A stretch of 18,250 nucleotides of DNA from a virus (Duplodnaviria; Heunggongvirae; Uroviricota; Caudoviricetes). A program made the translations under genes and the position numbers. Location of the stretch: the IMG/VR virus record IMGVR_UViG_2690315922_000010; one strand, 5' to 3'. Of the stretch, positions 1 to 18,134 are shown piece after piece (within the stretch, counting starts at the first letter, position 1; the number at the start of each line of letters is the position of its first letter). The notes beneath the pieces were generated by a model. It saw nothing but the letters and a program-made list of their open reading frames with translations. It had not been told where the DNA came from and searched no databases.

Positions 1-409
1 GCTCGAACTGACCATAACCAGCGCCCGGCAGTGAAGCCCAGATATTGCTGCAACGGTCAATTGCCTGACGAATATCACCGCGATCAATCATCGGTAAAGC
101 GCCACGCTCTTTAATCTGCTGCAATGCCACAGCGTCCTGGCTTTTCGGAGAGAAGTCTTTCAGGCCAAGCTGCTTACGGTATGCATCCCACCAACGGGAA
201 AGAAGCTGGTAACGTCCAGCTGCGGTTGATTTAAGTTGCGGGTTTAGCGTGACAAGTTTGCGAGGATGATCGGAGTAATCCGTGAATAGCTCACCACCTA
301 CAATAACGTCGTAGCCGTGATTGCGGGTTGGCTGTCGCCCGTTATCCGTTCCTTCTGACCACGCCAACATATCGAGAAAAGCTTTACGCTGGGAATTTAG
401 TACCTGCAT
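1..409 (-). CDS. R: Phage endolysin R (lambda R-type lytic transglycosylase), 3' end truncated by the window edge
   Basis: Reverse-strand translation from ATG at 409-407 reads MQVLNSQRKAFLDMLAWSEGTDNGRQPTRNHGYDVIVGGELFTDYSDHPRKLVTLNP...GAGYGQFE, near-identical to lambda R as I recall it (catalytic Glu in AWSEGT). Absent from the ORF track because no stop lies inside the window. Confidence 0.9.
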   Translation of the reverse strand, partial: MQVLNSQRKAFLDMLAWSEGTDNGRQPTRNHGYDVIVGGELFTDYSDHPRKLVTLNPQLKSTAAGRYQLLSRWWDAYRKQLGLKDFSPKSQDAVALQQIKERGALPMIDRGDIRQAIDRCSNIWASLPGAGYGQFE

Positions 410-412
410 AAA

Positions 413-739
413 TTACTCCTTCGAGCTACCAAATTTGTTGCCGATTACTCTCATTGCAGCACCACGAATAGCATCGACGCCGATCAGCCCAACGCCGCCA
501 CCAATGGCAACAGAAAGTGATTTAGGCCATCCGACATACTCAAGCGCGGATGCAAAGGTCAGCGTCAGAGCGCCACAGAGCAAAATCTCGAGCGTTTTTC
601 TCTTCCAGCCACCACCACCGCCAAAATAGGCAATGCGCAAGCCAGCCATAACGATCGACATAATCACTGCGCCCAGCGGTGTGTCTCCACGCCACCAGCT
701 CTGGACCAACTCCAGCCAAGTATTTGGGTTATGAGGCAT
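413..739 (-). CDS. S: Holin (lambda S-like class I), 108 aa
   Basis: Sits immediately upstream of R on the same strand with a 3-nt gap. Small protein with hydrophobic segments, a glycine-rich turn (YFGGGGGW) and a charged C-terminus. GAGGTGA ribosome-binding site upstream, though about 13 nt from the ATG. Confidence 0.7.
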   Translation of the reverse strand: MPHNPNTWLELVQSWWRGDTPLGAVIMSIVMAGLRIAYFGGGGGWKRKTLEILLCGALTLTFASALEYVGWPKSLSVAIGGGVGLIGVDAIRGAAMRVIGNKFGSSKE

Positions 740-887
740 TTGTAGTTATCTCTCACCTCGCTGATACAGCAGGTGCAAATTGAGGAAACATCATGTACCG
801 CAAATCAGAAGCGGAAACGTCAAAGAAGCCGAGCCAATGGATAACTGCGGGATAGACTAGGCCCAACGAATCCCCAGGCCCAGAAAC

Positions 888-915
888 GACAAAACCCGCT
901 CGACGGCGGGTTTAA
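888..915 (-). terminator. Candidate intrinsic terminator upstream of the lysis genes (tR-prime-like position)
   Basis: 8-bp stem AAACCCGC/GCGGGTTT (892-899 and 906-913) with 6-nt loop. Read on the minus strand it is followed by a U-rich tail (UUUUGUCGUUUCU). About 150 bp upstream of S. Confidence 0.35.
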
Positions 916-1030
916 GCTGTGTGGCGAAGTAACCACTCTTAACACAATACAATACTTTTTGCGTACGCGTTAGTGTTTTGATAGAATTTTCAGCCACATA
1001 AAAATCCATTCTTATAATTGGGGATATATA

Positions 1031-2206
1031 ATGGATATAACTTGTTTAGAATGTGGCAATGTTCTTGACGACCCAACTGTAGCTTGCGATAAATGCGGTG
1101 CCACGCCTCATGTTGTAGTGCTGGGCAAACAATCGTACTTTCCTATTGGTGCTGTAACAGCAAATCTTGAAAAAAATGATTCAAGAGCATTTGATTATCG
1201 ATTAGGTGAAGTTTGGGATCTAAAAAATGAAGTCACATCTGAATTCATAACCAGAATTGAGAAAAAATTTAGCCGAAAAAACAAATTTCATAACTTCCTA
1301 GACTCAGATCACAACCCTTCATCCATTCCTACGATCCTAAAAAAATACATTAATAAAAATAATGAATTCATTGATTTATCTAGAGCTATAATAGAGAGGC
1401 TTAAACATAATGCTAATAACGAATCGAGAGTTGCCCAACTTCAGGGGGGGAGCGTTGTTTTCATCCACTATAAGTCTACCGAACCAGAGGATTTGGGGAA
1501 ACTTCTAATCGTAATGGTTGATAAACAAAGCGCCTATGACTTTGATTCGGATAAGTTGACCCCAACAAGATTAAATCCAATTAATACCGATGCCTTACGG
1601 CAGGCTGCGATGTTCGATTTAACTTTATTCGAAGCCAGTTATCCAGAAAACAAGGGTGACTCATATGTACATTTCTTGCAAGGTAAATCTAAAAGCGATT
1701 TTTTCAAAGACTCATTAGGTTGCCGACATGATTCGGACAATAAAAGAAGCATTCAGCAATTATTCAGTGCTATAGATATTTTTGCTAGTAAAAACTCACT
1801 CGGTCGTGTACTGCGTGATACTATTGACAATGAAGTTAAATCCTTACTGGAAAAAAAATCAAAAGATAAACACGGAAATAAGTCCGTTAAGATAGAGGAT
1901 ATTTCAAAAATAATTGACTCATGCCTGACTGATTCACACAAATGTAAGGGAACGTTTGTCGATTTTGTTAATCTTAATGGTTTCCAGATTGACCCTCAAT
2001 TTGAACCAACTCCTAAAGCAGCTGAAAGCGCGCTTACAATTGAAGTGGCAGATAACGACAATAATTTTAAGTTGAAAATAATGCGTGGAGCTATTGGAGA
2101 CGAAAAGTCAAATAAGCCTGTAATTCTCACTGACAACAAATGCGAAATTGTGATAAAATTGAGTCAGGCAAATTATGATGAACTCAAAAGATATAGAGAC
2201 AGCTAA
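1031..2206 (+). CDS. Zinc-ribbon protein with NdpA/YejK-like (nucleoid-associated, PF04245-like) domain, 391 aa; cassette gene 1
   Basis: ATG at 1031 with GGGGA 6 nt upstream. N-terminal CxxC-X10-CxxC (C5, C8, C19, C22). Central block GGSVVFIHYK...LLIVMVDK...YVHFLQGKSKSDFFKDSLG resembles the NdpA/YejK signature as I remember it. Strongly AT-rich codon usage compared with flanking phage genes. Function is inferred, not confirmed. Confidence 0.8.
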   Translation: MDITCLECGNVLDDPTVACDKCGATPHVVVLGKQSYFPIGAVTANLEKNDSRAFDYRLGEVWDLKNEVTSEFITRIEKKFSRKNKFHNFLDSDHNPSSIPTILKKYINKNNEFIDLSRAIIERLKHNANNESRVAQLQGGSVVFIHYKSTEPEDLGKLLIVMVDKQSAYDFDSDKLTPTRLNPINTDALRQAAMFDLTLFEASYPENKGDSYVHFLQGKSKSDFFKDSLGCRHDSDNKRSIQQLFSAIDIFASKNSLGRVLRDTIDNEVKSLLEKKSKDKHGNKSVKIEDISKIIDSCLTDSHKCKGTFVDFVNLNGFQIDPQFEPTPKAAESALTIEVADNDNNFKLKIMRGAIGDEKSNKPVILTDNKCEIVIKLSQANYDELKRYRDS

Positions 2207-2208
2207 TA

Positions 2209-3423
2209 ATGACAATTGCTGATGACTTATCAAGATTAGCGCAGATTATTAACGGAGCCTCAAGCAGAGTTGAGGGCTACTACACTGTCATAAGTCTTGA
2301 AGAAAGCATTGTTATTGTAAATAGTTCTGAAATAATTAGACTGTTACAATCTATAGGTTATAAAAAGGCAACAACCTGCATCGAAAATAATGAAATTTGG
2401 CTAGATCGCCAAGCTTCATCTTGGGATGACGCTATAATTTATGAGAATGTTGAGTCTTTTTGGTCTAGAGTAAACACCCAAAACGCTCTTCCGAAAAATT
2501 ATATCATCGGAACGCCGTTAATACTCCCTACTTCTAAGAATGAAAGCATCGAAAAAATCCATATTTTCTTTATGTGGAAAGATATCCTTTCATTAATTGC
2601 TGATCATCATAACAGTGACTGCTCTGTCTTATTTTTCACCAATGAAGACAAAAGTTATACAGTCGAACTCACGCATTTTTTACAATATAGCGAGATTAAT
2701 CGCTTATCGAACTCGTCTCTTAAATATGAAATTATAAAGGAGCTTCTCGACACAATAAAAATCAATGATTTACACAAAAGCGAGCGCAAGCTCGTTATAC
2801 GCTCAGCCATAAACGAAGTATTTAAAGCAAATGGTACGTTCAATTTCTTTGACTTGCTTAACTCTACTGAACTCGTCAGGAAAAAATATGATGAACTATA
2901 TGAGATTTACACAAAGAGGTTTTCTGTAAATAAAATTCTTAACGAACTCGATGAGAAAAATCTTGAGTTCACGAGTAAAATTAACGAATTCATATCATCT
3001 AATCAGACAAAAGCATTGACTATTCCCGGTGCATTAATAGCAGCTGGTGGCTTAGTGAAGGCTAATGAAACAACCGAAGCAATATTGATTATCGCAGGAC
3101 TTTGGATGATAAAAAAAGTCAATTACATTTCTATTGAGATATTCAATGAAACATTCGACAACTTACGTTCTCGAGTGGAGTCCGCTTTCGATAAGTATTT
3201 AAAGTTTGAAGAAAATAAAGAAATCAAAGATAATGCAGATAGTATTAAGAGTAGCATTACAGGTTTGATTGATAAAGCTAAAAAAAGGATGAGAACTGTT
3301 AAATATCTCGCATCAGCCATGTTTTATGGAGGCCTTATTTACGTTGGATATAAACAGTTCCCAGTCTTTTTTGAAAAATCGGCAGTAAATCTATTTTATT
3401 TTTTATGCCATACTATAAGCTAA
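2209..3423 (+). CDS. Membrane-anchored protein of unknown function, 404 aa; cassette gene 2
   Basis: ATG 2 nt after the stop of gene 1, suggesting translational coupling. About 265 aa soluble N-terminal domain, then a hydrophobic helical hairpin (about aa 268-303, ALTIPGALIAAGGLV...AILIIAGLWMI) and a third hydrophobic segment (about aa 366-380, YLASAMFYGGLIYVGY). AT-rich like gene 1. No recognisable catalytic motif. Confidence 0.75.
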   Translation: MTIADDLSRLAQIINGASSRVEGYYTVISLEESIVIVNSSEIIRLLQSIGYKKATTCIENNEIWLDRQASSWDDAIIYENVESFWSRVNTQNALPKNYIIGTPLILPTSKNESIEKIHIFFMWKDILSLIADHHNSDCSVLFFTNEDKSYTVELTHFLQYSEINRLSNSSLKYEIIKELLDTIKINDLHKSERKLVIRSAINEVFKANGTFNFFDLLNSTELVRKKYDELYEIYTKRFSVNKILNELDEKNLEFTSKINEFISSNQTKALTIPGALIAAGGLVKANETTEAILIIAGLWMIKKVNYISIEIFNETFDNLRSRVESAFDKYLKFEENKEIKDNADSIKSSITGLIDKAKKRMRTVKYLASAMFYGGLIYVGYKQFPVFFEKSAVNLFYFLCHTIS

Positions 3424-3759
3424 CATTGCTAAACAGCCGTCAACAAACCCCATTGCAGTTTGCAGTTCCTTCCTAATTGTGCCATCAGAGCATTTTCTCT
3501 TCTTCGCAATAGTGCGTAATGAGATACCGATAACAAAGTGGGCGATGATGAGCTCATATTCCTCTGGTTTATACCTTCTCAACCGAGCCACACAACTGTC
3601 TATCATGATGCCTTCATCATCATCGCACTGGAGACGTGACTTTTTACCGTGTGGTAGAAGCCCCTTGAAACCAGCCGCTATCGGCTGCCAGTCGACACCA
3701 CTATTTTCTGCTGCAGCCCAAGCCCCCCAACGATCTAAAACTTCGTACATATCACGCAT
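3403..3759 (-). CDS. Q: Late-gene antiterminator Q (phage 21/QuuD-like family), 118 aa
   Basis: MRDMYEVLDRWGAWAAAENSG...AAGFKGLL...RLQCDDDEG...CSDGTIRKELQ matches the small Q family of E. coli lambdoid prophages as I recall it. Lies between the replication genes and the lysis genes. ATG overlaps the stop of the upstream gene (TGATG). Confidence 0.8.
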   Translation of the reverse strand: MRDMYEVLDRWGAWAAAENSGVDWQPIAAGFKGLLPHGKKSRLQCDDDEGIMIDSCVARLRRYKPEEYELIIAHFVIGISLRTIAKKRKCSDGTIRKELQTAMGFVDGCLAMLAYSMA

Positions 3760-4001
3760 CAGCGCAGTACCTCCTGCACCAGTTTTTCAAACTTTCCAAC
3801 TTTGGTTTCCAGCTCTGCCACACAATCAACGAGCTCATCCACCGCTTTTTGTGCGCGATGTTTCGCCTGCATCAGTTCCCTGAGCGCTGGCACCATATCC
3901 CGACGAATGGCATCTTTTGTTACACCTGTTTTTTCCAGTTGTTCCGCCTGTCGCAACATTTCCTGTGCCTGTTTACGTAGTTGTTCAGGGGTAAAAGTCA
4001 T
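3759..4001 (-). CDS. Hypothetical small coiled-coil protein (about 80 aa), nin-region position
   Basis: The ORF track starts at a TTG (4016); I prefer the ATG at 4001 (MTFTPEQLRK...). Charged helical sequence. Its stop overlaps the Q start, and its 5' end abuts the DnaB stop. No clear Shine-Dalgarno. Confidence 0.5.
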   Translation of the reverse strand: MTFTPEQLRKQAQEMLRQAEQLEKTGVTKDAIRRDMVPALRELMQAKHRAQKAVDELVDCVAELETKVGKFEKLVQEVLR

Positions 4002-4012
4002 TGTCTGGTTGT

Positions 4013-5404
4013 TCAAAAGAAACGCTCCATCTTACTGCTGTCAGTTCGTTTGTTGCTGTATCTGCGCGGCTGGGGCTGCTGCATTGGGGTGGAAAGAATC
4101 TGTGCGCTTTCCTGATCCACAGGCAGAAAATGTCCGTTATAAAAACGCCGGTAAATCGTCCCCAGAGAACCGTTACGTTGTTTCGTGATATTGATTTCTG
4201 CTATGCCCCGGGCCTGCGTATCCGGGTTGTACACTTCATCCCTGTAAAGCATCAGAATGATGTCTGCATCCGCCTCTATTTCTCCGGAATTTTTCAGGTC
4301 TGAGTTCATGGGGCGTTTATTGGGTCTGGACTCCACACCACGGGAGAGCTGGCTCAGCGCAATTAAGGGAAAACCACCGGATTTTGCCAGGCCTTTAAGC
4401 CCCTTTGAGATTTCACCCACGGCAAGGTCATGACGCCCCGTGGTTCGGGTTTTTATCAGCCCGAGATAATCAACCACCACCAGCGCCGTTTCCGGATATT
4501 TAATCAGGTGGTGTTTCGTTGTTGCGCATATCTCGTCAATGGTCAGGTTCGCCTGGTCCACCATCCAGATATTGCGCCCGGTCATCCGCCCCACCCCTTG
4601 TGAGAAACGCGCCCAGTCTTCGTCTTCAAAGTGAGCGACAGATTTCAGACGTGATACCGGCATTCCTCCAGCCGCAGATACCATGCGCTCACCAATCTGG
4701 ATGTTCGCCATTTCCATTGTGAACAGAAGAACACCATGCCCCTGCTCAGTCACCTTGTCGATGATATCCAGCGCCAGTTCAGTTTTGCCCATTGACGGAC
4801 GAGCCGCAATAAATACCAGGTCGCCGGGCTCCATGCCGCCTGTTTTTGCGTCCAGTTCATCAATACCGGTCATCAACGTCCTGGATTTCTCCAGCCCCTG
4901 ATTCCGGCATTCAACACGCTCAACCACTTCCGGAAGCACATCATCAATATGTACCGGCTGAATAACGCCCTTTTCCGTCGACAATGAGGCCATCATGTTC
5001 TGCGCATCCTTCAGGGCATCTTCAGCTGCTTCACAGGTATGCGCATCACGTAATTTCTGCAACGCCTCATTCAGCGTCTTTTCTGCATCACGCAGTGCGG
5101 CATTGCGACGCAACGCTGCAACATAGTGCTCCAGTGAAGACTTCACCCAGGTTTTACGCCCGGTATCAGTAATCACCGGAGCAAGTTCCGGCATCTCATT
5201 GCACAGCAGCACAGGATCAATCACACCTGAAACACGAGCCTGTCTGCAGATGCCTGTGTAGATATCCCGATACGCTCGTACAGAAAAAACGTCCGCAGGT
5301 AGTGTGGCCAGAATATCCATCACTTCAGGATCTGCCCCACGCAGAAAGAACGCGCCAATGACAGCGCCTTCCAGGTCATCGTTACGCCAGACTGGTGTTG
5401 TCAT
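4013..5404 (-). CDS. DnaB-family replicative DNA helicase, about 463 aa
   Basis: Walker A AARPSMGKTELAL and other DnaB C-terminal RecA-like motifs (LVFIAARPSMGKT, VVVDYLGLIK, LSQLSRGVESRPNKRP). Start set at ATG 5404, which overlaps the stop of the upstream loader gene (ATGA), rather than the track's GTG at 5512. Confidence 0.9.
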   Translation of the reverse strand: MTTPVWRNDDLEGAVIGAFFLRGADPEVMDILATLPADVFSVRAYRDIYTGICRQARVSGVIDPVLLCNEMPELAPVITDTGRKTWVKSSLEHYVAALRRNAALRDAEKTLNEALQKLRDAHTCEAAEDALKDAQNMMASLSTEKGVIQPVHIDDVLPEVVERVECRNQGLEKSRTLMTGIDELDAKTGGMEPGDLVFIAARPSMGKTELALDIIDKVTEQGHGVLLFTMEMANIQIGERMVSAAGGMPVSRLKSVAHFEDEDWARFSQGVGRMTGRNIWMVDQANLTIDEICATTKHHLIKYPETALVVVDYLGLIKTRTTGRHDLAVGEISKGLKGLAKSGGFPLIALSQLSRGVESRPNKRPMNSDLKNSGEIEADADIILMLYRDEVYNPDTQARGIAEINITKQRNGSLGTIYRRFYNGHFLPVDQESAQILSTPMQQPQPRRYSNKRTDSSKMERFF

Positions 5405-6279
5405 GCAGCCACACCTCTGATACGAGAACGGTAGCTGGGCCAGTTGAACGACAACCAGTTGCGCCCCCCGTCTGTGATCCTGTCGGCAATGCGGGGGCTG
5501 ATGAACGCCCACAACTCTTCCGGTGAAAGGTTGCTGATCAGGATGGTGGGCAGGATACTTTCGTACCGGGCATTGATAATTTCCTGCAAAATAGCCATTT
5601 CAGCCGCGCTGCCAAACTGAACACCAACTTCGTCGATGATCAGCAAATCCATTGACGCATAATGCTCAATAACTTCATCCGCTGTTTTTTCGCTGTCATT
5701 CCGCCAGCAGTTTTTCACAGCACGGGTAAGGCGCATCACGTCGGTGATCTCCACGCTGGCCAGATGATTACGGATGATGTGTTTTGCCATAGCCACAGCC
5801 AGATGATTTTTCCCGGTACCGCAACTGCCAGTCATAACAAGACTGGTGCCGTTCTCCAGCATATCTGGCCAGTTCTCCGCATAGCGGCGACAGGCTGCAA
5901 GATTTCTGGCTGCGTCAGGATTAACCTCCAGATAGTTATCAAACTCACAGTCCCGAAAACGCAGGGCAATTCCGGCGTTATCAGTCAGCTCTTCCGCCTT
6001 GAGGGACGACAGCTCCATGGTCAAATCGTTGGCCTCAGCGATCAAGCAGTCAGGGCAGCATGAAATTTTTTCTCTGTCCTCGCCATTGCGATCGCTCCAC
6101 ACCAGTATATGCGTATGGTATTTACCGTGTTTTTCGCAATACCCGCGACCTTCACGCATCAGGCAGGAACGATAAGGCCATGGCTTTTCGCCCTTCTGAG
6201 CAAATGCAATCTCTGCCCGTAACTCATCCATTCGCGCCTGTAGTCTTGTTTGTTGTTCACGCAGGTTAAACGTCATCAT
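5401..6279 (-). CDS. DnaC/IstB-like AAA+ helicase loader, about 292 aa
   Basis: Walker A GSCGTGKNHLAVAMA and Walker B LLIIDEVG. N-terminal Cys/His-rich segment (CEKHGKYHTH...CCPDC). ATG at 6279 preceded by GAGGTGA; the track start at 6288 is a GTG. Confidence 0.85.
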   Translation of the reverse strand: MMTFNLREQQTRLQARMDELRAEIAFAQKGEKPWPYRSCLMREGRGYCEKHGKYHTHILVWSDRNGEDREKISCCPDCLIAEANDLTMELSSLKAEELTDNAGIALRFRDCEFDNYLEVNPDAARNLAACRRYAENWPDMLENGTSLVMTGSCGTGKNHLAVAMAKHIIRNHLASVEITDVMRLTRAVKNCWRNDSEKTADEVIEHYASMDLLIIDEVGVQFGSAAEMAILQEIINARYESILPTILISNLSPEELWAFISPRIADRITDGGRNWLSFNWPSYRSRIRGVAA

Positions 6280-6289
6280 CGCTGTCACC

Positions 6290-7198: not shown

Positions 7199-7418
7199 AG
7201 CCACCTCCCAGACGCTTAAACATTTTCCCGGACTGAAAAGCCACCAGCGGATAACTCAGGGTATGAGTACGTCCCTGAACCTGGCAGACAACCTTCTGGC
7301 TTTCTGTATTGACCAGGCAAACCCGCAGAACGTGGCCGTTGCTGGTGGTGAACCACTGCCCCACACGGGGGCAACGGTTGTATCGGTGATACAAGGAATT
7401 AACGACGCGGCGAATCAT
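7185..7418 (-). CDS. Hypothetical protein, 77 aa
   Basis: ATG at 7418 preceded by GGGAGGT and overlapping the stop of the upstream gene (ATGA). Basic and Cys-containing. The track start at 7433 gives a slightly longer form. Confidence 0.55.
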   Translation of the reverse strand: MIRRVVNSLYHRYNRCPRVGQWFTTSNGHVLRVCLVNTESQKVVCQVQGRTHTLSYPLVAFQSGKMFKRLGGGYASV

Positions 7419-8077
7419 GGGCGCACCTCCCATTGATTACGGCGGAAAGCGGTGTGACTGAGACTGGTTTCAGTTTCATGGAATGCTTCAATGCAGCTCT
7501 CGTAGTACCGCATTGTGCGCAGACTTAACCCAAGCTGAAGCATCATCAGGCCATCAAGGGTGATGTAATAACCACGCAGGGAGTCACCATAGATGTGATA
7601 AGTACCCGGTATGAAATTGCGGGTAAAAAATTCGCGCGAGCAGTTCAGATACTCGATTTTGTCGACGATGTTCTGGTGCATGCGCTTGAAATGGCAGGCA
7701 ACATGCAGGGAGAAAATAACGGCCTTGCCGTTGACGACTTCGATTTTCAGGTATGGGGAAGTTGGGACTGTAGCCATGATGGCAGCCTCCGATAACAGTG
7801 AATTACCTTCACCACCGGAAACGCCAATTTCGCTGGTGGTGAACTGAACGGGGTTGGCGTAACCGGCGTTATCGGAAACCGGCGCACCTTTCGGTGCCCC
7901 CGTCCAGCCCACCATAATTTGGGTGTGCGCAGACGCAGACGATAAAAAAGACGCTGGCGCGTCATATATCGCCGATAACATTTCCAGGACGCCAATCCCG
8001 GCACCCGCTTTATAAGGTGCTTGGACAGTGTACCGTCCCGAAATTGCAGAATCAATATTTAGGCTTGAAACATTCAT
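7415..8077 (-). CDS. Hypothetical protein, 220 aa, no recognisable domain
   Basis: Longest ORF in the interval and translationally coupled to the downstream 77-aa gene. Weak ribosome-binding site at its own start, so the start is uncertain. Confidence 0.5.
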   Translation of the reverse strand: MNVSSLNIDSAISGRYTVQAPYKAGAGIGVLEMLSAIYDAPASFLSSASAHTQIMVGWTGAPKGAPVSDNAGYANPVQFTTSEIGVSGGEGNSLLSEAAIMATVPTSPYLKIEVVNGKAVIFSLHVACHFKRMHQNIVDKIEYLNCSREFFTRNFIPGTYHIYGDSLRGYYITLDGLMMLQLGLSLRTMRYYESCIEAFHETETSLSHTAFRRNQWEVRP

Positions 8078-8155: not shown

Positions 8156-8180
8156 GCCGGGTCACTACCCGGCTTTTTTT
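8156..8180 (+). terminator. Canonical intrinsic terminator, plus-strand polarity
   Basis: GCCGGGT (8156-8162), loop CACT, ACCCGGC (8167-8173), then TTTTTTT (8174-8180). On the minus strand the hairpin follows the Rha stop but has no U-tract. Confidence 0.45.
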
Positions 8181-8893
8181 CACCGCTGCCAGCCAATAAC
8201 CTGAAATAACCCCATTTTCGGGTGATACCAGCGAGTCCCTCGCGGTTCTGCTTCCTCCATAACCCGATAAAAAGCAGCCATAAACGGTTCCACGGCAACA
8301 ATTGCGCGACGTGATAACAATCCGTCCGGCGTCATAAACTCGTGGGTATCTGTAGGAATTTGATAAGCGTTCACCAGATTGCGGCATTTATCATCTGACA
8401 AACCGGTTTTTGCTTTCAGTTGGCGATATCCGGCATAGCCCTCACGAATAGTGCCCTTTTTGATTTGCTCGACTGTTTCAGCAACGTGGCTGACTTTTTC
8501 TTCCACCTGAGTGATCCGTTTCTGCTGGCGAACAGCTTCAAGAGCCATTGCAGCAACCATTTCGATTTCGCTCATTGGCTTACGGATCTGTTCTTCCAGT
8601 TCGCGCCAGCGATCTACCAGGCGGGCTGTGAATTCGGGGCAAAGCTGAGCGACAACAATGATGCTGTCGCGTTTGCCTCGTTCACCTTCGAAAAGATAAT
8701 GCTTACTTTTTTGAGTTAAACCTAACCCATTGATATTTTCAGAAATCCCCATTGGGGGAAGCTGAATAATCCTTCTTTCAGCAAGGCGCTCAATGGATTG
8801 TTTAACTTTGTCATGGCGGCTGCCCACCAGCTCTGCGATTTCAACACTGGTCATGGATGCTTTGCCGTTAAAAATTGCGGTGTTCACTGCCAT
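8180..8893 (-). CDS. Rha-family phage regulatory protein, about 237 aa
   Basis: N-terminus MAVNTAIFNGKASMTSVEIAELVGSRHDKVKQSIERL is typical of the Rha (PF09669-like) domain. ATG at 8893 preceded by TAAGGAG; the track's upstream extension is rejected. Confidence 0.75.
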   Translation of the reverse strand: MAVNTAIFNGKASMTSVEIAELVGSRHDKVKQSIERLAERRIIQLPPMGISENINGLGLTQKSKHYLFEGERGKRDSIIVVAQLCPEFTARLVDRWRELEEQIRKPMSEIEMVAAMALEAVRQQKRITQVEEKVSHVAETVEQIKKGTIREGYAGYRQLKAKTGLSDDKCRNLVNAYQIPTDTHEFMTPDGLLSRRAIVAVEPFMAAFYRVMEEAEPRGTRWYHPKMGLFQVIGWQR

Positions 8894-9006
8894 CTCCTTA
8901 CGGATAAATTCTTTTAAAATTCCGCACATTCGTACTTGTTGGTGCCGAACCTTCCTTTAGTTATCCTTTTGATCCCTATAAACAAAAGAACCAAAGGAGG
9001 TTCGAC

Positions 9007-9707: not shown

Positions 9708-10400
9708 ATGACATTTTCAGAACGACTTGATTTAGCTATGCGCAACGCAAAATTTACGCAAGGTAGGCTGGCCAAAGAAGTGGGTATGGCTCAGTCCAGT
9801 GTTAATCAACTACTTAACAAAGCCAACGGTTCCAGAAAAACAGTCGAAATAGCAAAAGTTTTGGGCGTTAACCCGGAATGGCTCGCATCGGGTGTTGGTC
9901 CAATGGAAATCGTGACCTCTGCAGACTCACACCAAATACGTAACATTTCTGAAGATTGGGTTACTGATTCGTATGTCGTGGATGTTTTAGACATCAGATA
10001 TAGTTGCGGACCTGGTAGTTATAACTCTGATTTTCCTGACATTGTCAGATCTATAGCGATAGAACCAGGATACGCATCAAGAGTTTTTGGCGGCAGACCA
10101 GCATCAGCAATCAAAGCAATAAACGCCCACGGCGACAGTATGAAAGGCACAATAGACCCTGAAGACTTGGTATTTGTAGATGTATCAGTTCGCACATTTA
10201 ATGGTGATGGTATATACGCCTTTACATACTCTGGAACATCGCACATCAAAAGACTTCAAAAAATCAAAGATACTCTAACGGTGATATCTGACAACCCAGC
10301 TTACAAGGATTGGGCTATCGAACCGGAAGACTTCGAACAACTTCACATTGACGGAAAAGTAATTGTCAGTTGGCCTATGACACTACACCGTTTTGCATAA
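9708..10400 (+). CDS. cI: CI-like prophage repressor (XRE HTH N-domain + S24 LexA-like peptidase C-domain), 230 aa
   Basis: N-terminal HTH (LAKEVGMAQSSVNQLLN). C-terminal autoproteolysis domain with the GDSM motif (Ser nucleophile) and a downstream Lys. AGGGGAGGA ribosome-binding site. Divergent from cro-like. Confidence 0.9.
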   Translation: MTFSERLDLAMRNAKFTQGRLAKEVGMAQSSVNQLLNKANGSRKTVEIAKVLGVNPEWLASGVGPMEIVTSADSHQIRNISEDWVTDSYVVDVLDIRYSCGPGSYNSDFPDIVRSIAIEPGYASRVFGGRPASAIKAINAHGDSMKGTIDPEDLVFVDVSVRTFNGDGIYAFTYSGTSHIKRLQKIKDTLTVISDNPAYKDWAIEPEDFEQLHIDGKVIVSWPMTLHRFA

Positions 10401-14813: not shown

Positions 14814-16127
14814 ATGGATAAAGTCAAATATCCAACAGGCGTCGAAAACCACGGCGGCACATTACGCATCTGGTTTAATTTTAAAGGTAAACGTGTCAGG
14901 GAAAATCTTGGTGTCCCTGACACTGCCAAGAACAGGAAGATCGCCGGGGAACTACGGACATCGGTATGTTTTGCCATCCGCACAGGAAGCTTTGATTATG
15001 CTGCACAGTTCCCTGACTCCCCTAACCTTCAGGCTTTTGGGGTAAGTAAAAAAGAAATTACGGTGAAAGAACTTGAAGAAAAATGGCTGGATCTGAAACG
15101 AATGGAAATCTCTGCAAATGCATTCAATCGCTATGAATCCGTTGCAAGAACGATGGTTCCGAAAATTGGAGGCAGCAGACTGGTGTCATCGGTAACTAAA
15201 GAGGAATTGCTGTATATCAGGAAAGATTTGCTGACCGGGTATCAGAATCCAACGAAAAACAAAGCAGCAGCAAAAGGACGGAGCGTCGTTACTGTAAATT
15301 ATTACATGACGACAATCGCTGGAATGTTTCAGTTTGCTGCAGATCACGGTTACTTAGAAGCAAATCCCTTCCAGGGAATTAAGCCTCTTAAAAGAGCCAG
15401 GGCAGAGCCAGATCCGCTAACTCGTGACGAATTTATTCGCCTGATAGATGCTTGCCGACATCAGCAGACGAAAAACCTGTGGTCATTGGCTGTGTACACA
15501 GGAATGCGTCACGGTGAACTGGTCTCCCTGGCCTGGGAAGATATCGATCTGAAAGCAGGAACTATTACTATCAGGCGCAATTATACGAAACTCGGTGAGT
15601 TCACTCTACCTAAAACTGAAGCAAGTACAAACAGGGTTGTGCATCTTATCCAGCCCGCTATCAGTGTCCTGAAAAATCAGGCTGAAATGACAAGACTGGG
15701 TAAGCAGCACCACATCAAGGTTCAACTACGTGAATATGGGCGTTCAGTGAATCATGAATGTACTTTCGTATTTAACCCCCAGGTGGTTAGAAAAAGCAAA
15801 CAGGTCGGTTTTATCTACAAGGTAGATTCTATTGGCGACTCATGGGAAACAGCCATTAAGCGTGCGGGCATCAGGCACCGGAAAGCATACCAGTCACGAC
15901 ACACTTATGCGTGCTGGTCGTTATCTGCCGGAGCAAATCCAAGCTTCATTGCCAGCCAGATGGGCCATGCAAGTGCCCAGATGGTGTTCAATGTATACGG
16001 AGCATGGATGACTGACAGTAATGCAGAACAGATCGCAATGCTGAATCAGAAGCTGGCAGATTATGTCCCAATGATGCCCCATAGTCACCAAAATGGCACA
16101 AAAGGCTTATTAAAATCAGTAAGTTAA
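14814..16127 (+). CDS. int: Tyrosine integrase (lambda Int-like, IntR/IntE-type N-terminal arm-binding domain), 437 aa
   Basis: GGAGG ribosome-binding site. N-terminus PTGVENHGGTLRIWFNFKGKRVRE...GSFDYAAQFPDSP is typical of E. coli lambdoid integrases. C-terminal catalytic region has conserved Arg, His-x-x-Arg (SRHTYA) and Tyr. Last gene before the host junction. Confidence 0.9.
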   Translation: MDKVKYPTGVENHGGTLRIWFNFKGKRVRENLGVPDTAKNRKIAGELRTSVCFAIRTGSFDYAAQFPDSPNLQAFGVSKKEITVKELEEKWLDLKRMEISANAFNRYESVARTMVPKIGGSRLVSSVTKEELLYIRKDLLTGYQNPTKNKAAAKGRSVVTVNYYMTTIAGMFQFAADHGYLEANPFQGIKPLKRARAEPDPLTRDEFIRLIDACRHQQTKNLWSLAVYTGMRHGELVSLAWEDIDLKAGTITIRRNYTKLGEFTLPKTEASTNRVVHLIQPAISVLKNQAEMTRLGKQHHIKVQLREYGRSVNHECTFVFNPQVVRKSKQVGFIYKVDSIGDSWETAIKRAGIRHRKAYQSRHTYACWSLSAGANPSFIASQMGHASAQMVFNVYGAWMTDSNAEQIAMLNQKLADYVPMMPHSHQNGTKGLLKSVS

Positions 16128-16610: not shown

Positions 16611-18134
16611 ATGAAACGTGCAATCAGTTACATCCGATTCAGTTCTGAGAAGCAATCCCGAGGTGATTCACTACGCCGACAATCGAAGTTGGTCACTGAC
16701 TGGCTTAAAGCTCGTCCTGAGTATCATCTAGATGAATCTCTTACCTTCCGTGATTTGGGGAAAAGTGCTTTTAGCGGTAAGCACTTGAAAGGTGGCTTAG
16801 GCGACTTCTTAACCGCTATTGAGAAAGGGCTTGTAAGAGCTGGTGATACGCTCTTGATAGAGTCTCTTGACCGTCTGTCACGGCAAGATGTAGACCGAGC
16901 AAGTGAACTACTCAGAAACATCCTTCGCTCTGGTGTCGATGTGGTCACATTATCCGATAATGAACACTACACAAAGGAATCTCTTAAAGACCCGTTAGCC
17001 TTGATTAAGTCAATCCTGATTATGCAACGAGCGCATGAGGAAAGTTTGAGGAAGTCTGAGCGTATACAGGCTGCATGGGATGCAAAGAAAGAAGCCGCTA
17101 AAGCTGGTATCAAGATTTCTAAGCGTTGCCCTGCATGGCTTAAGCTTAATAATGACCGTAAAAGTTTCTCTGTAATCCCTGAGAAGGTAGCGACGGTAAA
17201 GCGATGCTTCCAGCTACGGTTAGAGGGTAAGTCTATCTTGGAAATTGTCAGAACTCTTAATAGTGAGGGACATCAGACGCTTAACCAGTACAAAGCGGGT
17301 AAATTTAGTCAGACTTCTGTGCAAGACCTTTTGAAGAATCGCTCTGTAATTGGTTATTTCACCCCCAAAGGCTGTGAAGAAATTTCAAACTATTACCCCT
17401 CTATCATCCCTGAGACTGATTTCTACAAAGTCCAGCAACTATCATATCCTCGTTACGGTAGAAAACCTGCTTCAGATAAACCATTGAGTGTGAATCTTTT
17501 CAAGGGTGTTATCCGTTGTTCTGAATGTGGTCATGCTCTGATTATCACAGGCTTTAGCGATACAAGGAACGGGATATATCGCTGCCCTCTTCGTAATGAA
17601 AACCGTTGCAGTGCTAAGGGTCTGTCACGTAAGCAAACTGATGGAACATTACTTGCTTTGCTCTCTCGTCTTGACCGATTTGAGAATGGTACAACGAATG
17701 CCATTGATACACTGAAGCTACACCGTGAACACATTTCAAACAATATTGAGAAGCTGGTACAACTCTCACTTGAAGTCGAAGACCTGACCGCTATTACCAG
17801 CAAGTTAAAACAGTTAAAGGGGGAGTTATCACAGGTTGATGCTGATATTGAGAAGGAGGCACAACGCCTTAAATCTATTGACGTGGGTTGTTTGTCTGAT
17901 TGTGACTTGAGTACAAAGGCGGGAAGGATTGAAGCACAACTGATTATTCGTAGTGCTGTTAAAGAAGTTGTTTTAAACACTGCTAAACGTCGCTGTAGAG
18001 TAACTTTTCACAATGGCAAGGTGATTGACCTGTCGATAACAGAAAACCCCGCTCAGGACATTACAGAGGCTGAAAAGTCGCTTACTGAAATTGCTGAGAA
18101 GGGTCTGTTAGATGTTGACGCCTTCCAACTGTAG
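16611..18134 (+). CDS. Large serine recombinase (serine integrase), 507 aa
   Basis: N-terminal resolvase-type catalytic domain (AISYIRFSSEKQSRGDSLRRQ with Ser nucleophile, LIESLDRLSR). Recombinase domain, Cys-rich zinc-ribbon (CSECGH...YRCPLRNENRC) and C-terminal coiled coil. Confidence 0.9.
   Translation: MKRAISYIRFSSEKQSRGDSLRRQSKLVTDWLKARPEYHLDESLTFRDLGKSAFSGKHLKGGLGDFLTAIEKGLVRAGDTLLIESLDRLSRQDVDRASELLRNILRSGVDVVTLSDNEHYTKESLKDPLALIKSILIMQRAHEESLRKSERIQAAWDAKKEAAKAGIKISKRCPAWLKLNNDRKSFSVIPEKVATVKRCFQLRLEGKSILEIVRTLNSEGHQTLNQYKAGKFSQTSVQDLLKNRSVIGYFTPKGCEEISNYYPSIIPETDFYKVQQLSYPRYGRKPASDKPLSVNLFKGVIRCSECGHALIITGFSDTRNGIYRCPLRNENRCSAKGLSRKQTDGTLLALLSRLDRFENGTTNAIDTLKLHREHISNNIEKLVQLSLEVEDLTAITSKLKQLKGELSQVDADIEKEAQRLKSIDVGCLSDCDLSTKAGRIEAQLIIRSAVKEVVLNTAKRRCRVTFHNGKVIDLSITENPAQDITEAEKSLTEIAEKGLLDVDAFQL

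Follow-up and report, generated by a model that had tools for sequence, protein, structure and literature searches.

A DS-1 anti-phage cassette in the cargo slot that separates antiterminator gene Q from a predicted late promoter in a P27/SfV-like lambdoid prophage

We analysed the late-regulation region of an 18,250-nucleotide (nt) stretch of DNA from a virus of the Caudoviricetes (IMG/VR record IMGVR_UViG_2690315922_000010; hereafter the window, meaning the whole stretch). We consider it highly probable that this region is a late-regulation module of the P27/SfV-like lambdoid type, in which a cargo slot, here holding the anti-phage system DS-1, comes between the antiterminator gene Q and the late promoter PR', and in which PR' is intact. 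Sequence comparison places PR' on the far side of the cassette, next to the holin gene S, at about 979-937 on the minus strand, from where it would fire away from the cassette (Table 1). In a lysogen, PR' would yield only a leader RNA of about 50 nt, ending at the terminator tR'. Upon induction, Q would be produced from the early rightward operon, act in trans at PR' and load onto RNA polymerase, and the Q-loaded polymerase would pass tR' and go on to transcribe the genes for lysis and morphogenesis. Late transcripts would thus start at about 937 and run leftwards via the hairpin of tR' into S and the endolysin gene R, and, given this start and direction, they would never cross DS-1. An earlier note on this DNA had described the region differently. 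Having found no convincing sigma70-like late promoter immediately downstream of Q or in 916-1030, it proposed that late transcription crosses the entire cassette in antisense, or that the insertion of the cassette either displaced the late promoter or deleted it, which would make the prophage lysis-defective, or altered the C-terminus of Q.

Table 1. Features of the late-regulation region, in window positions; numbers with a sign are relative to the predicted PR' start.
Feature	Position	Strand	Remarks
Endolysin gene R	1..409	-	lambda R-like; truncated by the window edge; translation begins MQVLNSQRKAFLDMLAWSEGTDNG
Holin gene S	413..739	-	lambda-type, 108 amino acids; first late gene past PR'/tR'; PF05106, E = 5.7e-25
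Intrinsic terminator tR'	884..913	-	+25..+54; 8-bp stem, 6-nt loop, then TTTTGTCGTTT
Predicted PR' start region	937..942	-	A937 homologous to the Sp5 start from differential RNA sequencing
Predicted PR' -10 hexamer TATTGT	944..949	-	aligned with TATCAT of Sp5/933W
Alternative overlapping TAnnnT hexamer	949..954	-	-17..-12; conserved
Candidate Q-binding element TAACGCGTACGCAAAA	957..972	-	-35..-20, overlapping the weak -35; invariant in the subfamily
A-tract	976..979	-	-42..-39; conserved; possibly a proximal UP-element-like sequence
Candidate cassette promoter(s)	978..1018	+	TTGATA-16-AAAAAT at 978-1005, perfect TATAAT at 1013-1018; consensus scan and direct reading
First DS-1 gene	1031..2206	+	391 amino acids; YejK/NA37-like nucleoid-associated domain and N-terminal zinc ribbon
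Second DS-1 gene (DS-1B)	2209..3423	+	404 amino acids; no Pfam domain
Convergent overlap of Q and DS-1B	3403..3423		21 bp, tail-to-tail
Cargo-specific Q tail and recombination junction	3403..3436	-	codon comparison, megablast edge
Antiterminator gene Q	3403..3759	-	118 amino acids; short subfamily of the Q21/Q933W family

The position of PR' follows from homology with the prophage Sp5 of VT2-Sakai. The segment of the window from about 880 to 1004 matches several phages in which the neighbours of Q differ, and in VT2-Sakai the homologous block starts 10 nt past the Q stop codon. For Sp5, differential RNA sequencing (dRNA-seq) mapped a primary start of PR' that is enriched by terminator exonuclease (TEX), Term-seq placed the 3' end at tR' 258 nt downstream, and RNase E was found to cut between GU and AUU after +173 (Sy et al. 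2020, PMC7547250). Only one position of VT2-Sakai fits both distances, an A in GATAAGAGTGG, 7 nt after TATCAT (L007:692), and it aligns with A937. Between 949 and 884 on the minus strand, 50 of 69 alignment columns are identical (about 80% over the first 60), and the alignment is gapless from the -10 hexamer to the first hairpin. The elements concerned are not scattered through the window: TAACGCGTACGCAAAA (972-957) and TTAAGAGTGGTTAC (942-929) each occur in one exact copy, on the minus strand. Across 31 distinct sequences, T-12, A-11 and T-7 are invariant, positions -10 to -8 vary and T-35 is conserved. Judged on sequence, this TAnnnT pattern is the signature of a -10 hexamer. In the same set the A-tract is kept at 94-97% at -42 to -40 and at 68% at -39, despite the differing cargo upstream. 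From these comparisons we infer the activity of PR', its exact start between 937 and 942, and the binding of Q to the invariant element.

The block at 979-884 could in principle be something other than a promoter (a terminator, a small-RNA gene or a recombination flank), with the late genes expressed by antiterminated read-through from the early operon. We regard this as very improbable. The conservation of TAnnnT is that of a -10 hexamer, in Sp5 a TEX-enriched primary start lies at the homologous position, the upstream element goes with the recognition helix of Q whether loci are sampled by Q or by the element, and without PR' and its Q utilisation site (qut) the Q protein would be left without a target. 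Against these stand the conservation of both flanks of the slot, as recombination targets would show, and the standing of PR' activity in this Q subfamily as a prediction from sequence.

The separation of Q from PR' is not peculiar to the window. We compared 80 IMG/VR contigs whose Q is at least 88% identical to that of the window (forward sample) and, conversely, contigs selected by the TAACGCGTACGCAAAA 16-mer alone, of which 29 loci reach 4.2 kb or more upstream (reverse sample). The block TAACGCGTACGCAAAA - N7 - TAnnnT - GTTAAGAGTGGTYAC lies 1.2-3.8 kb downstream of the Q stop in every forward locus long enough to show it, and next to Q in none. The 16-mer is present in all 81 loci, Q-selected or reference, that were long enough to judge. 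All 29 reverse loci have a Q-like open reading frame (ORF) 1.1-3.0 kb upstream, 28 of them with the recognition helix CSDG[TS]IRK, and the distance from Q stop to PR' never falls below about 1.1 kb in this subfamily. Shorter distances obtained with a loose motif (104, 248 and 922 nt) were chance matches inside cargo and disappear with a stricter pattern. Q types with other recognition helices differ at the position of TAACGCGTACGCAAAA: 933W has TACGATCGTA there, phiP27 has GGAATTCC, and phage 21 a direct-repeat Q-binding element (QBE). Each of the window, 933W and phiP27 types shows its own perfect palindrome, followed by AAAAA, at the same distance from the -10 hexamer; the palindromes lie at 957-972 on the minus strand in the window (GCGTACGC), at 658-673 of L007 in 933W and at about 3060-3075 of L001, minus strand, in phiP27.

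The split layout also occurs in deposited genomes, namely mEp460, SfII, phiP27, Stx1a and Stx2a converting phages and Klebsiella phage P7641. Of these, mEp460 and SfII propagate as phages. Q of lambdoid phages works in trans, its target being RNA polymerase that has paused near PR', and the distance between gene and promoter should therefore not matter. The split is the ordinary architecture of this lineage. The promoter may be called displaced in the trivial sense that 2.46 kb separate it from the Q stop, but this is the invariable layout of the Q subfamily. The remark that no sigma70-like late promoter can be recognised holds for consensus scans, although a homologue of PR' lies inside 916-1030. 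The idea that the insertion removed the late promoter and left the prophage lysis-defective does not agree with a predicted PR' of intact sequence on the S-proximal side. Comparison of relatives puts the predicted late promoter within 740-1030, one of the two places (the other being inside the cassette) where the earlier note had said it would be found if its concerns were unfounded.

In the textbook layout, the Q gene is directly followed by PR' (bioRxiv 10.1101/651190). Lambda, phage 21 and 933W are arranged in this way. In the window, the inferred start is 2,464 nt from the Q stop. Late transcription antisense through the cassette to S, as the earlier note had suggested, would require a late promoter just downstream of Q, in the 3' end of DS-1B. 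The textbook arrangement speaks for such a promoter, as does the minus strand, which has no terminator between Q and the cassette, so that early transcription continuing past Q would enter the cassette antisense. However, the minus strand from 3402 to 1031 has consensus sites at chance level only, the sequence just past Q differs from one cargo class to the next, so that a Q-specific binding site could not be conserved there, and the elements homologous to the PR' of Sp5 occur only once in the window, at 972-929. Given that the PR' homologue is S-proximal and would fire away from the cassette, we find a promoter inside DS-1B hardly credible.

Several points weigh against an active PR' in an intact phage. 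The -35 hexamer is poor (CTAACG, a three-of-six match, with an 18-bp spacer), and a scan of the minus strand for the TTGACA/TATAAT consensus returned nothing within 916-1030 or directly past Q (in total 12 sites, compared with 9.1 +/- 3.0 expected by chance); the scan misses PR' because of the poor -35. Two conserved TAnnnT hexamers overlap, which would make the start uncertain by 5 nt (A937 or T942). With the upstream hexamer as -10, the start would be at about 942 and TAAGAG (942-937) would occupy +2 to +7, just as the pause element of phage 21 does. This motif resembles the sigma-dependent pause element (SDPE) TAAGCT of phage 21, and it is transcribed only with a start at about 942; downstream of A937 there is no convincing SDPE and no conserved TAnnnT. 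The case for promoter activity is built on homology with Sp5, where the first hairpin is evidently leaky, a 258-nt RNA being made to the second terminator at +258; the hairpin at 913-892 may likewise be less than fully efficient as tR'. No phage in INPHARED carries DS-1 by megablast or tblastn (tblastn returned only distant YejK-like proteins, in Pseudomonas phages). Finally, in the sole complete genome inspected, Escherichia coli TUM9868, the tail region of the DS-1 prophage is degraded.

Some of these points would fit a cassette insertion that crippled late regulation, by way of a PR' dead through its weak -35 or a Q impaired by its last five residues (AYSMA), in a lysis-defective prophage kept by selection for defence only. 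The poor -35, the lack of an isolated phage with DS-1 in INPHARED, and the IS1 insertion and truncated tail genes of the TUM9868 prophage are all compatible with this. Yet mEp460, SfII and Stx phages share both the weak -35 and the invariant upstream element. It is normal for Q to carry 5-14 residues beyond GF.DG, the tails of 933W and phiP27 are longer still, and the Pfam match spans Q residues 1-115. About 80 complete genomes preserve the module from Q through DS-1 and PR' to S at 98.6% identity or more, the overlap with Q persists in a diverged DS-1 allele, and S is full length. We therefore judge such decay unlikely, if somewhat less so than the two alternatives above, and favour an intact module with its promoter beyond the slot.

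The tail-to-tail overlap of Q with the second cassette gene had been put at 21 bp (3403-3423); it is exact by the ORF table and recurs in relatives. Within it, Q reads L-A-Y-S-M-A-stop and DS-1B reads C-H-T-I-S-stop, and the DS-1B stop TAA pairs with the Leu113 codon of Q, TTA. The overlap recurs in 106 complete E. coli genomes and in 31 IMG/VR loci, and an identical one is annotated by PGAP in E. coli TUM9868. The diverged DS-1 allele (87-92% amino-acid identity) retains an overlap of 30 bp together with a co-varying Q tail, AQCMA. More generally, Q is overlapped by 4-30 nt in DS-1 and two other cargo classes. The overlap is real and not an artefact, and it is a stable, tolerated by-product of cargo exchange with a junction in the last Q codons. 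A junction at this place gives Q its own short tail in each cargo class.

Q itself is recognised by PF06530 (160.3 bits compared with a cutoff of 26; Pfam), matches the Q21 structures 6P18 and 6JNX weakly (E = 0.0028 for 6P18) and is 47% identical to Q of VT2-Sakai/933W. Its tail in the window is CLAML-AYSMA, of which the last five codons lie inside cassette DNA and are the complement of the final DS-1B codons, i.e. of the cassette 3' end. In the closest relatives bearing other cargo, Q stops 3-5 residues sooner. We compared the Q 3' ends codon by codon in 18 representatives of the cargo classes. Q is near-identical through the codons of GF[VIL][DE]G, then nucleotide identity between classes collapses, being lost within codons about 108-113; the megablast match to Stx1a phages stops at window position 3440. 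Class-specific tails of 5-14 residues after GF[VIL][DE]G are universal across the group, and those of 933W and phiP27 are longer than those of the window subfamily. The proposed alteration of the Q C-terminus is thus correct as to origin, AYSMA coming from cassette DNA, but such tails are universal and no damage is apparent. AYSMA would be normal cargo-specific variation, presumably harmless. The Q of SfII (L004 4844-5155, minus strand), of the same subfamily, is without 13 residues (AENSGVDWQPIAA) after WGAWA, which suggests that the loop they form may be dispensable.

The cassette matches the validated anti-phage system DS-1 on the evidence of its sequence. The first protein scores 452.3 bits against NF053868 (DS1_1_antiphage, cutoff 330) and the second 375.2 bits against NF053869 (DS1_2_antiphage, cutoff 315), both NCBIfam equivalogs; the first also has a Pfam NA37 match (E = 5.5e-24). 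The genes are adjacent and co-oriented on the plus strand, 2 nt apart, and correspond to the E. coli annotations WP_000355468.1 (first) and WP_000150292.1 (second), with 99.4-100% DNA identity between the cassette and E. coli genomes in which the second gene bears WP_000150292.1. In TUM9868 both accessions adjoin a Q gene on DNA at least 99% identical to the window. In the DefensePredictor study, DS-1 is a validated system with working id D390, made of WP_000150292.1 and WP_000355468.1; its supplement gives a cloned span of 2,393 bp and marks protection in MG1655 pCV1 as replicated (PMC13092281). The cloned span equals the length of window 1031-3423, and we found no sequence difference between the two. 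The portion of the text consulted does not describe the genomic context, i.e. the Q and PR' neighbours and the overlap with Q. PADLOC v2 (2023) did not recognise DS-1 in the cassette proteins, though NCBIfam does. The overlapping cassette of Klebsiella phage P7641 was considered as a DS-1 and rejected; it has no tblastn similarity to DS-1, with which it has only the NA37 domain in common.

Among 5,426 complete E. coli genomes, 106 have the cassette at 99% identity or more. The early regions upstream of the conserved module differ among the roughly 80 genomes that keep it. Its GC content is 0.35, compared with 0.47-0.52 in the flanks. The promoter candidates at 978-1018 may drive it, diverging from PR'. 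The DS-1 prophage of TUM9868 is integrated at icd, its IS1 insertion lies in the tail genes, and iss (increased serum survival, bor-like) is found antisense inside its lysis cassette (L090 18851-19144, plus strand).

DS-1 is one of many occupants of this position. The interval that runs from the 3' end of Q to the PR' block is filled by about 20 cargo classes of 1.2-3.8 kb, all of low GC content (0.30-0.40) and with nearly all ORFs antisense to Q. Their domains include RelA_SpoT (PADLOC PDC-S33), a caspase paired with a ThsB-type TIR protein, NA37 with varied partners, a HEPN and GmrSD_N/NsnA-like pair with a C5 methylase, and Metallophos-NACHT (PDC-S60); about half of the cargo proteins tested had no match in Pfam or PADLOC. 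YejK/NA37-like proteins are encoded in three otherwise unrelated slot cassettes (L006 5055-6230, minus strand; L046 8380-9489, minus strand; window 1031-2206, plus strand), with a 404-residue partner in DS-1, a 405-residue one in Klebsiella P7641 and a RelA_SpoT protein in L046. In most classes, a bidirectional GC-rich hairpin terminator flanked by A- and T-runs lies no more than about 60 nt from the Q stop; examples are L005 (1101-1130) and, just past the Q stop, L038, L053, L069, L086, L065, L046 and L054. This terminator between Q and cargo is absent in DS-1 and two other classes, and on the plus strand we detected no terminator or stable structure after DS-1B before Q.

A more far-reaching proposal, which we judge less likely than not, is that P27/SfV-like lambdoid phages reserve the interval from Q to PR' as a defence hotspot of constrained polarity, where cargo is swapped by recombination between the GF.DG codons and the A-tract/QBE flank, and that unterminated convergent transcription could couple the states of defence and Q in DS-1 and the two other classes. 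Read-through from the defence operon might then damp Q in the lysogen, and early transcription through Q might silence defence once the phage commits to lysis. The regulatory value of convergent transcription at the Q/DS-1 junction is speculation. A partial parallel is paQ of lambda and phage 21, since antisense transcription into Q could likewise damp Q in the lysogen, also speculatively; but paQ is a dedicated promoter, whereas antisense RNA in the window would be operon read-through, and no CII-type, paQ-like site (TTGYN6TTGY) occurs in or near Q.

Our literature searches returned nothing specific that describes a Q-PR' hotspot. The slot resembles the hotspots of P2 and P4 (Rousset et al. 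2022) in its conserved flanks and its swappable, low-GC, mostly defensive cassettes with their own expression signals. It differs from known hotspots in that the cargo is almost always antisense to the early and late operons, and in that the coding sequence of Q contains one of the flanks, with the result that exchange rewrites the Q C-terminus. Its location is also new compared with those described: stx morons lie downstream of PR', the slot upstream.

Compared with Sp5/933W, the window has a Q of the same family (PF06530), a homologous core from -12 to about +50 including TAAGAGTGGTTAC, a first hairpin with a T-run, an A-tract and palindrome upstream of the -10, and late genes on the same strand. 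The differences lie upstream and downstream of this core. The promoter of Sp5 overlaps the 3' end of Q, with the start 22 nt after the stop, whereas in the window cargo intervenes. The palindrome is TACGATCGTA in Sp5/933W and GCGTACGC in the window. Sp5 has a usable -35 (TTTACG), in contrast to the poor one of the window, and its mapped tR' is the second terminator, at +258.

Phage 21 was compared through the annotated elements of OL657228 (-35, QBE, -10, start, SDPE and terminator). Its pR' shares with the window the Q family and a TAAG motif beside the start, and its QBE lies between -35 and -10, as the candidate element of the window does. Its terminator, annotated at +3 to +50, is likewise promoter-proximal (within about 50 nt) and leaves a very short leader. 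On the other hand, Q21 has 162 residues, its QBE is a direct repeat (ATTGAGCA/AATGAGCA), the -35 is a consensus one and the promoter abuts Q. Structures of Q21 were reportedly published by Yin et al. and by Shi et al. in 2019.

Between the cassette and S, the only terminator-like hairpin that had been noticed is indeed found, at 913-892 on the minus strand (+25 to +46), with a T-rich tail, followed by TGTCGTTTCT. The leader RNA folds with -19.6 kcal/mol (z = -2.5), and a hairpin with a T-run is retained at the position of tR' in most of 113 distinct leaders, although its sequence varies. An Rfam scan of 600-4100 at E <= 1 returned two chance snoRNA matches only, placing the leader in no known family. 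The same 113 leaders (L002-L208) have a conserved small hairpin at +2 to +17 (GUGGU/GCCAC; in the window, in the 921-942 region of the minus strand), in which T+7C tends to co-occur with C+14A. An inverted repeat, TTAAG (-5 to -1) and CTTAA (+22 to +26), surrounds it in 86 of 96 distinct leaders. When tested as an RNA stem, this repeat gave no clear covariation, including at positions -5 and +26, and either reading, RNA structure or DNA site, would fit it. The full-length S begins about 150 nt after the first hairpin, and R is annotated as a glycoside hydrolase of family 24 or 104 in the matching genomes.

These results bear on how such prophages are annotated. In prophages of this widespread group from E. 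coli, Shigella and Klebsiella, including Stx1, Stx2 and Stx2e converting ones, the place to look for the late promoter is 1-4 kb past Q rather than beside it. A poor -35 hides PR' from consensus scans, which bears on predicted inducibility and toxin expression. With the Q tail and TAACGCGTACGCAAAA as its two borders, the slot provides a genomic anchor for mining defence cassettes. Finally, variable Q tails together with an upstream element that tracks the recognition helix lead to testable hypotheses on the specificity of Q for DNA.

Other features of the window lie outside this module. Two Ant/Rha-like regulator genes (7415-8077 and 8180-8929, both on the minus strand) belong to the early rightward operon, between the replication genes and the immunity region with its cI-like gene (9708-10400, plus strand). 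About 500 bp past a tyrosine integrase (14814-16127, plus strand) comes a large serine recombinase (16611-18134, plus strand; PHROG 95). The presence of both at one end of the prophage may reflect a second element or a tandem insertion. The ORF of a DnaB-like helicase (4013-5512, minus strand), when called from its first start, overlaps the upstream DnaC-like ORF (5401-6288, minus strand) by about 110 nt, and the true start of the helicase is probably an internal ATG.

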